DNA from: Candidatus Micrarchaeota archaeon
GTDB lineage: Archaea; Micrarchaeota; Micrarchaeia; Micrarchaeales; CABMGC01
Assembly (NCBI GenBank): GCA_964419095.1
Contig: CAYQOG010000001.1
Coordinates: forward strand, 15,759-79,758
DNA: 64,000 bases
Reading direction: 5' to 3'
A program made the translations under genes and the position numbers. Each line of letters opens with the position of its first letter. Positions within the stretch are counted from its first letter, which is position 1. Under the pieces are notes generated by a model. That model saw nothing but the letters and a program-made list of their open reading frames with translations. It was not told where the DNA came from and ran no database searches. This document shows, one piece after another, positions 30,779 to 32,167 of this stretch.

Positions 30779-32167
30779 ATGATAGATATAACAAAGGATA
30801 ATTTTGAAGCAGAGGTACTCAAGTCTGGAATACCTGTTGTCGTAGATGCATGGGCCGTTTGGTGTGGCCCCTGCGTAACTCCAGATACTGTACTCTTAGG
30901 AGACAACAAACCGATTTCTCAAGTCCAAGCAAACGATTATGTTTTCACGCAAACAGGGCATAATCAAGTTAAGGATAGTTTCAGCAGGCAATACGATGGT
31001 GATATTCTTACTGTCAAAGCCTGTGGGATGCTCCCGTTCCAAATTACGCCAGAACATCCTGTATTGATATCTACTTCAGAATCAACGGACAGGATTATAG
31101 GTATGTCAAGCACTTACTGGAAGGAAGCAGGCAATCTCATAGCCAAAGAGAAAGACGACGACGGCGATTATCTGGTTATACCAAAACTGAAGGGCAATAC
31201 AGATACAAAATTAATTAGCCTGGGAAAGTACATAGCAGACAGAAATATCAGTATGGCTTCCCGCAAGAATGTGCCGCTGGAATTCCCCCTAAATGAAGAT
31301 ACGGCATGGCTCCTGGGTCTCTATGTCGCAGAAGGAAACGCAAGCGATAATGCAGTCGTGTTCAATCTGGGAGCAAAAGAGGTAAAACTGCAAAATGAGG
31401 TAATCAGAATAGGCAAGGATCTTGGATATTCCCCCTGCATAAGCCATTCATCCCAAAGCGCAGTCAAAGTCTCTATCAAGTCAAGGTTGCTTACAAGGGC
31501 GTTCCCAGAATGGTGCGGACATCTGGCCCCAAACAAGAAGATACCCGACTTCATCCTGATGCATAAAAACGATGCAATTCCAAAGAAATTCCTTGAAGGC
31601 TATCTGATCGGTGACGGGAACAAGAGGGATGGCATGCAATTTGCAAGATCTGTATCGAAGCTATTGATGATACAACTGCAACTGCTTTATACGCGATTTG
31701 GCAAATTCGCAGTCTTACAACTATCTCAAAAAGGCGGAGTGTCAAAAATACTAGGCAGGACTGTCCATACGCATGACATGTATACTATGTGCGTAAGGGA
31801 AAACGGCGCAACACAGGCAAGGCAGACTCCTGAATACATATACGTCCCTATAAGGGAAATAACGCGAAAAGCTTACTCTGGTGTAGTATGCAACATAGAA
31901 ACTGCTGACAACACCTACCTGATAAACAATGCAGTTGTACACAACTGCAGGATCTTCTCCCCGATATTCGAAGGCCTGGAGAAGGACTTCTCAAAGAAGG
32001 TAAAGTTCGCGAAGCTCAACGTGGACGAGAATCCCGACATCTCAGGAGAGTACAACATAATGAGCATACCCACCACGCTTCTTTTCGAGAAAGGCAACGT
32101 AAAGGCCATGTCCGTGGGCGCGGTGCCCAAGGAGGACTTCAAGAAGTGGCTGGAGAAAAACCTTTAA
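30779..32167 (+). CDS. trx: Thioredoxin precursor interrupted by an intein (spliced product predicted at 104 aa)
   Basis: N-extein [31 protein letters not shown] and C-extein [15 protein letters not shown]...[26 protein letters not shown] join to a canonical WCGPC thioredoxin. Confidence 0.9.
   Translation: [462 protein letters not shown]
30872..31945 (+). mobile_element. Intein (358 aa) with LAGLIDADG homing-endonuclease domain
   Basis: Cys1 (CVTPDTVLL), block B [17 protein letters not shown] motifs [10 protein letters not shown] and [11 protein letters not shown], block F/[22 protein letters not shown], then Cys+1. Confidence 0.9.

Follow-up and report, generated by a model that had tools for sequence, protein, structure and literature searches.

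Our analysis identifies, in a 64-kb stretch of chromosome from a Candidatus Micrarchaeota assembly (contig CAYQOG010000001.1; hereafter the window), a thioredoxin gene of a Micrarchaeota-like (DPANN) archaeon that carries an intein in its active-site codons. The explanation that we favor, with a probability of about 0.68, is that the gene was invaded by a mobile class 1 LAGLIDADG intein. The element sits exactly between the proline and the second cysteine of the WCGPC motif, and the unspliced precursor reads C29-G-P-C32, where the first active-site cysteine (Cys-3, three residues before the intein) and the first intein residue (Cys1) form a CXXC across the N-terminal splice junction. A first-pass annotation of this DNA had proposed that this tetrad is a redox gate on the maturation of a redox enzyme; our results point instead toward a by-product of site choice by the mobile element.

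The host gene is one uninterrupted open reading frame (ORF) on the plus strand of the window (30779-32167), with its ATG at 30779 and its stop codon at 32165-67, and it encodes a product of 462 residues. The intein corresponds to precursor residues 32-389 (358 aa), and its removal in silico leaves a thioredoxin of 104 residues that carries WCGPC, scores 120 bits against TIGR01068, the NCBIfam thioredoxin equivalog (cut-off 96.8), and matches the Pfam Thioredoxin family PF00085 in a single unbroken stretch (95 bits). In the unspliced precursor, both the Pfam and the TIGR01068 matches fall into two pieces. The score above the equivalog cut-off, together with the WCGPC motif present after splicing, identifies the host as a thioredoxin of the TrxA type. 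In line with this assignment, the AlphaFold2 (AF2) model shows strand, helix and strand at residues 2-4, 6-14 and 20-25 of the N-extein, and the C-extein superimposes on thioredoxins of the PDB with a root-mean-square deviation of about 1 Å over 68 residues (Foldseek) and also aligns with PDB thioredoxins by sequence. Cys-3 is invariant in the alignment of spliced thioredoxins. The window around the gene is archaeal chromosome, as shown by genes for an archaeal histone, PolD DP1 and DP2, a thermosome, gyrase A and B and an Lhr helicase. In this regard, a check of the sequence confirmed the positions that the first-pass annotation had given for Cys-3, Cys1 and Cys+1 (Table 1); the junction is literally C-G-P-C1, as in the thioredoxin CGPC motif, and the in silico spliced product bears out that Cys+1 replaces Cys1 after splicing.

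The inserted element shows the features of a class 1 intein, namely Cys1, the TxxH of block B, a terminal His-Asn followed by Cys+1 and a HINT fold, and its insertion is in frame, given that precise removal restores the host protein and that empty-site alleles exist. Residue conservation was read from an alignment of 40 sequences, comprising this precursor and 39 relatives. Cys1 (column C32), H388, N389 and C390 are invariant in it, as are T90, P91 and H93 of block B (with E92 conserved in at least 90%) and V370, N372, T375, N384, V387, H388 and N389 of blocks F and G. The AF2 model built on that alignment (predicted local distance difference test score, pLDDT, 91.6; predicted template-modeling score, pTM, 0.87) displays a HINT plus LAGLIDADG fold, together with all thioredoxin secondary-structure elements in both extein halves, and its confidence drops solely at the two junctions. 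When the model was compared with the PDB by Foldseek, TliVMA (7qsu) was the best match (E 5e-20), followed by PhoVMA, PI-SceI, PI-PkoII and PI-PfuI. These five proteins share the two-domain HINT and LAGLIDADG architecture (Foldseek E 5e-20 to 2e-10) and differ from the present intein in their hosts and insertion sites, sequence identity being only 11-17%; we know of no report of any of them in a thioredoxin-fold protein. Judging from its conserved residues, the intein looks splicing-competent.

The LAGLIDADG endonuclease is also apparently intact. Each of its two LAGLIDADG helices closes on an acidic residue: G180, A184 and G186 of motif 1 are invariant in the 40-sequence alignment and E185 is conserved in at least 90%, G278 and D279 of motif 2 are invariant, and so is the block D lysine, Lys253. 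The order of elements assigned by DSSP in the AF2 model is alpha-beta-beta-alpha-beta-beta-alpha, which is the pseudo-dimer fold of these endonucleases, and the middle of the model matches I-DmoI and I-Tsp061I with target-normalized TM scores of 0.55-0.68 (Foldseek). PI-PkoII is the only solved sequence relative of the endonuclease part (E 4e-11).

It could be argued that the element has decayed, that the intein no longer splices and that the thioredoxin gene is inactivated. Nothing specific speaks for such a pseudogene; the proline at position -1 and the asparagine that block F holds instead of the usual aspartate (N372) are slightly unusual. However, Asn372 is invariant throughout the clade and proline at -1 recurs in 9 of 141 related junctions, whereas the ORF is uninterrupted, all catalytic residues are invariant and the same architecture with intact exteins is conserved in several diverged genomes. 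We rejected this explanation, which is very improbable, on the conserved splicing and endonuclease residues.

According to the mechanism that we propose for the invaded gene, the precursor would splice autocatalytically: the Pro-Cys1 bond would undergo an N-S acyl shift through Cys1, transesterification by Cys+1 would follow, Asn389 would then cyclize and an S-N shift would come last, restoring CGPC and freeing an active endonuclease. The C-G-P-C1 tetrad arises unavoidably when an intein with Cys1 and Cys+1 lands where the codons of the gene are most conserved. As a side effect, the precursor would be intrinsically sensitive to oxidation, with a Cys-3–Cys1 disulfide blocking the first step until it is reduced, by analogy with the Ssp DnaE trap and the P. 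abyssi MoaA intein described below. We consider such a sensitivity more likely to be incidental than adaptive.

Table 1. Features of the intein-containing thioredoxin gene (window positions; residue numbers are those of the precursor unless stated otherwise).
Feature	Position	Strand	Basis or remark
N-extein, thioredoxin residues 1-31 (beta1-alpha1-beta2, up to W-C-G-P)	30779..30871	+	ORF; Pfam/TIGR01068 match running across the splice
Trp codon (TGG) before Cys-3	30860-62	+	Sequence
Cys-3 (TGT), precursor Cys29; first, nucleophilic Cys of CGPC	30863..30865	+	Sequence
Gly-2 (GGC) and Pro-1 (CCC), between Cys-3 and intein Cys1		+	Sequence
Class 1 intein, HINT domain with inserted LAGLIDADG homing-endonuclease domain	30872..31945	+	
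Intein Cys1 (TGC), precursor Cys32; step-1 nucleophile, fills second CGPC Cys slot in the precursor	30872..30874	+	
Block B, T-P-E-H (TxxH), T90-H93	31046..31057	+	
LAGLIDADG motif 1, LLGLYVAE185G; acidic Glu185 at 31331-33	31310..31342	+	Helix 173-185 (AF2)
Arg236 (AGG), intein Arg205; motif S-R-L-L-x-R-A-F, beta4/alpha3 boundary, first endonuclease subdomain	31484..31486	+	
LAGLIDADG motif 2, YLIGD279G; acidic Asp279 at 31613-15	31589..31624	+	Helix 266-279 (AF2)
Blocks F and G, ending in His-Asn	31883..31945	+	
His-Asn (CAC-AAC), H388-N389	31940-45	+	
C-extein: Cys+1, thioredoxin residues 32-104, stop codon	31946..32167	+	
Cys+1 (TGC), precursor C390; resolving Cys of CGPC once spliced	31946-48	+	Invariant in 40-sequence alignment

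Comparison with related genomes suggests that the intein is mobile. The nearest intein-free thioredoxins belong to two Micrarchaeota metagenome-assembled genomes (loci L002 and L003; 63% and 56% identical), where the WCGPC gene is uninterrupted. Both proteins read WCGPCR(F/M)FSP and independently fix the intein boundaries; the DNA of the empty site is TGG TGC GGT CCA/TGC AGG, the L002-type site being GAATGGTGCGGTCCA/TGCAGGTTT, where the slash marks the point of insertion, as it does in all junctions below. The window is syntenic with L002 and L003, sharing on the minus strand a PRC-barrel protein, a 180-186-aa protein (184 aa) and a histone, and on the plus strand trx, hisS and an MJ0538-like gene. 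The same locus is occupied by the intein in two other genomes (P0002/L082 and P0004/L084). By their histidyl-tRNA synthetases (HisRS), the occupied L082 and the empty L002 are mutual closest relatives (52% identity), and the window and L082 share 44%. At the occupied or compared loci, the inteins are 55-62% identical, the HisRS proteins 38-52% and the 184-aa neighbor 30-44%, so that the inteins resemble one another more closely than either neighboring protein does. A further thioredoxin clade, only distantly related (WCKP/C; P0005-7 and P0009), also has a related intein at this site, in a different genomic context, and the Cys-3 plus Cys1 arrangement recurs in P0002-P0007 and P0009. Intein occupancy is patchy and does not follow the host phylogeny. 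With respect to sequence entries, P0002/L082 is labelled at NCBI as the bacterium 'Candidatus Acidoferrum sp.', yet its locus is syntenic with Micrarchaeota loci and encodes archaeal exosome, histone and L37ae genes; the contig is probably mis-binned.

The composition of the intein is foreign as well. Its GC content of 43.8% falls at the 1st percentile of the window, in which segments of equal size have 50.7 +/- 2.4%, and the GC content at third codon positions (GC3) is 0.45 in the intein, 0.64 in hisS, 0.80 in the C-extein and 0.36 in the N-extein, the last value being drawn from a small sample of 93 nt (31 codons). The low GC3 of the N-extein against the high GC3 of the C-extein suggests a one-sided co-conversion tract left by homing. 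With its apparently intact endonuclease, its foreign composition and a patchy occurrence in which sister lineages have the site empty, the intein bears the signs of a selfish, recently mobile element rather than of a domesticated one. The patchy distribution and the foreign GC content also lend indirect support to a site-specific cleavage of the intein-less allele.

A different account of the same junction, which is the one put forward by the first-pass annotation, is that maturation is adaptively redox-gated: oxidation would form the Cys-3–Cys1 disulfide in vivo and stall thioredoxin, reduction, possibly by already mature thioredoxin, would release splicing, and the host would depend on this self-referential, possibly bistable switch. 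The CXXC geometry that it requires is present. Moreover, the statement that Cys-3–Cys1 disulfides block the first step, with engineered and native archaeal precedents, is supported by the literature (PMC3922620; PMC10663303; PMC11766414). A cysteine engineered at -3 of the Ssp DnaE intein forms a disulfide with Cys1, and N-cleavage takes place only under reducing conditions (PMC3922620; PMC10663303). The corresponding redox trap (Cys-3-Pro-Gly-Cys1) was explicitly modeled on the thioredoxin motif and, as in the present case, places a CXXC across the N-terminal splice junction (PMC11766414); it differs in being synthetic, in reading CPGC and not CGPC, in residing in a mini/split intein without an endonuclease and in its validation, which came from a crystal structure and from work in E. 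coli. The P. abyssi (Pab) MoaA intein is, like the one described here, a native archaeal class 1 intein, in which an N-extein cysteine forms a disulfide with Cys1 that controls activity (Callahan et al., 2011, via PMC3922620 and PMC10663303). Also comparable are the block of the first step by oxidation, the release of splicing by reduction and a host enzyme that is redox- or oxygen-sensitive. In contrast to MoaA, the present host is thioredoxin, the disulfide reductant of the cell, and its tetrad is the canonical CGPC. Other redox-responsive inteins, namely Pab PolII (Cys1–Cys+1 disulfide), Mma PolII (internal disulfide), Mtu SufB and Msm DnaBi1 (Cys118–Cys48), likewise have a catalytic cysteine sequestered by oxidation, although the partner cysteine is at +1 or internal to the intein and not part of a catalytic CXXC of the host.

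By analogy with these precedents, redox gating of the present junction is chemically plausible, and the locus may be regarded as the natural original of the engineered thioredoxin-like design. Oxidized thioredoxin holds the same C-x-x-C ring, so a C29-G-P-C32 disulfide would be sterically unproblematic. An adaptive role is further in keeping with the AF2 precursor model, which predicts thioredoxin secondary-structure elements on both sides of the intein, with the persistence of the intein-bearing allele in at least four diverged lineages and in the second thioredoxin clade (CKP/C), and with a strong preference for Cys-3 across the intein clade. However, a Cys1 intein placed before the second cysteine of CGPC produces the CXXC automatically, and its presence is therefore no evidence of selection for gating. 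Thioredoxin function keeps Cys-3 and splicing keeps Cys1, so that their co-occurrence carries no signal of such selection and their conservation is uninformative. We found no sign of selection for a trap independent of host function, because thioredoxin itself requires Cys-3, the distribution is patchy and mobile, with empty-site sisters, an apparently intact endonuclease and foreign composition, and the residue that co-varies with Cys-3 (see below) maps to the endonuclease domain and not to the splice site. The adaptive logic also seems weaker than for the oxygen-labile MoaA, since holding back the maturation of thioredoxin during oxidative stress would deprive the cell of reductant at the moment of need and would seem maladaptive. 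With regard to a feedback loop, no second thioredoxin, thioredoxin reductase or other intein was found in the 64-kb window. It is conceivable that Cys1 protects against over-oxidation, or that thioredoxin reduces its own precursor as feedback. On balance, we regard an adaptive gate as unlikely. What stands of the original proposal is that the trap would come from the host's own catalytic motif, the junction being CGPC, and that its chemistry and precedents are real. Such a trap is not unique, given that radical-SAM, Zn-ribbon and other thioredoxin-fold hosts show the same arrangement, which is common in this clade, and the switch as a selected trait finds no support, in view of the missing selection signal, the marks of mobility and the covariation in the endonuclease domain. 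No description of a native thioredoxin-hosted intein was found in the literature searched.

The wider clade shows how the intein chooses its sites. A search with the intein alone against 1.84 billion representatives returned 4794 relatives that reside in other hosts, and 254 of these had E<=1e-30. The survey of junctions used the 150 best representatives, which yielded 141 clean junctions in 103 host contexts. Related inteins that are 41-46% identical reside in NuoB, PHP/TIGR00375, radical-SAM, TFIIB, primase large subunit and GNAT acetyltransferase hosts. Extein position -3 is cysteine in 42 of the 141 junctions, against 8% expected from the other cysteines of the same hosts (p=4e-14), and no other position from -8 to -1 has more than 5. 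These 42 junctions represent 35 unrelated host contexts, whereas the mirror arrangement, in which the intein precedes the first cysteine of a CxxC (Cys+4), occurs in one context (35:1; p=1e-9). The fraction with Cys-3 climbs with similarity to the present intein, from 11% below 34% identity to 56% at 40% or more. Landing before the second cysteine of a CxxC is the rule in this intein clade, and the 35:1 asymmetry implies that a need for a conserved cysteine does not by itself explain the pattern. No report of a CxxC insertion bias of inteins was found in the literature searched.

The hosts with Cys-3 are diverse. Among those with a thioredoxin fold, P0115 (CGH/C) is clearly above the PF00085 cut-off, P0101 (CSH/C) is barely so (24.1 against 23.5 bits) and P0156 (CPH/C) is a weaker match under the cut-off; in these three, as in the thioredoxin-fold P0005/L085 (CKPC), a related intein interrupts the active site at the corresponding place. 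Many of the other hosts are Zn ribbons (CPK/C and similar) or radical-SAM proteins, whose motif is CxxxCxx/C; MoaA likewise has a radical-SAM CX3CX2C motif, to which its Cys-3 may belong. Two simple causes of the bias were examined. Phylogenetic inertia was rejected as the sole cause in view of the 25 Fitch steps that Cys-3 takes on the intein tree, against 36 when shuffled, and of the unrelated hosts; a proline at +2, as in CPxC knuckles, would be at most a partial reason for avoiding the first cysteine, since CPx is found in only 16 of the 42 junctions.

The survey also brought to light inteins at other kinds of sites and in multiple copies. NuoB (complex I subunit B) accounts for 88 of the top 120 matches (P0015-P0120, for example L090), with the intein at ETAC/CSVE, between adjacent cysteines; the few NuoB matches that have a source name come from Nitrososphaerales/Thaumarchaeota, and the literature searched contained no mention of a NuoB intein. 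At least two inteins of this clade reside within single proteins in P0121 (898 aa), P0126 (3308 aa), P0122, P0140 and P0251, and in P0121 the two inteins each precede the second cysteine of a CxxC (CKS/C and CNR/C) in related repeats. The gene of P0115/L092 adjoins a Cas12f1/TnpB-like gene.

All 141 inteins were aligned and the columns were tested for tracking extein Cys-3. A single column stood out. Intein position 205, which corresponds to Arg236 of the precursor, is arginine in 37 of the 42 Cys-3 junctions and in 20 of the 99 others (Fisher 3e-14). When 42 disjoint nearest pairs discordant for Cys-3 were compared, Arg205 was found only in the Cys-3 member of 29 pairs and only in the other member of none (p=4e-9; Bonferroni about 3e-6). 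By comparison, none of the residues of splicing blocks A, B, F and G co-varies with Cys-3 in the 141-intein alignment. PI-PkoII carries a lysine at the position aligned with Arg236. In known LAGLIDADG enzymes, the beta4/alpha3 region is part of the DNA-binding saddle; it is turned toward the DNA and remote from the HINT active site. As deduced from the alignment, the covariation suggests, rather than establishes, a role of Arg236 in homing-target recognition and not in splicing chemistry, and the reading that we prefer is that the endonuclease would read the Cys-3 codon. Both the asymmetry across the clade and the covariation at Arg236 are new comparative results of this work.

Alternatively, coupling may take place at the level of the protein, Cys-3 being favored through a contact with the intein, for instance Arg236 tuning a thiolate, or through a site for Zn or another metal formed by Cys-3, Cys1 and Cys+1 (plus His) that guards or gates the thiols. 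Several observations fit this idea: the strong asymmetry between the second cysteine (35 contexts) and the first (1), the persistence of the Arg205–Cys-3 covariation in phylogenetically matched pairs, flanks that reveal no common DNA target, and the many hosts that are Zn ribbons or Fe-S proteins. Zn inhibition of splicing is also documented for other inteins (PMC7360933). Set against this, Arg236 is located where beta4 meets alpha3 in the LAGLIDADG saddle, in the generally DNA-facing region far from the HINT site, and thioredoxin is without a second cysteine pair that could complete a Zn site. We hold a coupling of this kind to be improbable.

Several points weigh against the explanation by invasion and site choice. 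That the precursor splices, that the endonuclease is active and that the disulfide forms are inferences. Proline at -1 reportedly hinders the acyl shift in some engineered inteins, and the precursor may consequently splice slowly and persist, leaving a redox gate more chance to act. The +/-18-nt flanks of nine host families have in common only TGY at -9..-7 and +1..+3, and do not demonstrate a common endonuclease target. Tryptophan (TGG) stands at -3 in 2 of the 20 Arg205 inteins without Cys-3, which is no clear enrichment in a comparison of low power and lends no support to a pure 'TG-reading' model. In addition, variation is greater in the endonuclease domain than in the splice blocks, and the domain offers more columns able to co-vary, which weakens the argument from the location of the co-varying residue; Arg236 may also contact Cys-3 directly at the protein level.

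A bolder proposal goes beyond invasion and site choice, and we find it doubtful. It holds that the clade is specialized for CxxC motifs, with an endonuclease that reads both cysteine codons and an Arg236 that pairs with the Cys-3 codon, and that each invasion builds a gating thiol cluster (redox or metal), thioredoxin reducing its own trapped precursor. If this were true, the preferred landing pads would be the active sites of thioredoxin-fold proteins, Zn ribbons and radical-SAM motifs, the thiol cluster would consist of the Cys-3/Cys1 pair plus Cys+1, and thioredoxin would gain an autocatalytic loop.

Elsewhere in the 64-kb window, no further intein-end or LAGLIDADG motif was detected, the thioredoxin intein being the only one. 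The classic intein hosts PolD DP2, gyrase A and B and a helicase are intein-free here (53443-56895, 4414-8792, 9167-11944). A gene for an AbiEii-type nucleotidyltransferase toxin (42461-43138, minus strand; Pfam E 2e-13) overlaps an unannotated ORF of 211 aa (41842-42477, minus strand), which could be its antitoxin partner. Neither of two large ORFs, at 35840-39007 (plus strand, 1055 aa) and 11972-13591 (minus strand, 539 aa), matches a Pfam family at E<=1e-8.

Together, our findings bear on a debate of long standing, namely whether inteins regulate their hosts or are simply selfish, for which this locus is a clean test case. If its junction is redox-sensitive, it would be a natural counterpart of the engineered 'thioredoxin-like' trap and would offer protein engineers a compact redox-conditional intein that is ready for use. 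The clade-level 35:1 preference for the second cysteine of CxxC, tied to one endonuclease residue, may matter more than the single locus: it provides a handle on the poorly understood colonization of new host genes by endonuclease-bearing inteins and predicts where undiscovered inteins will be found.

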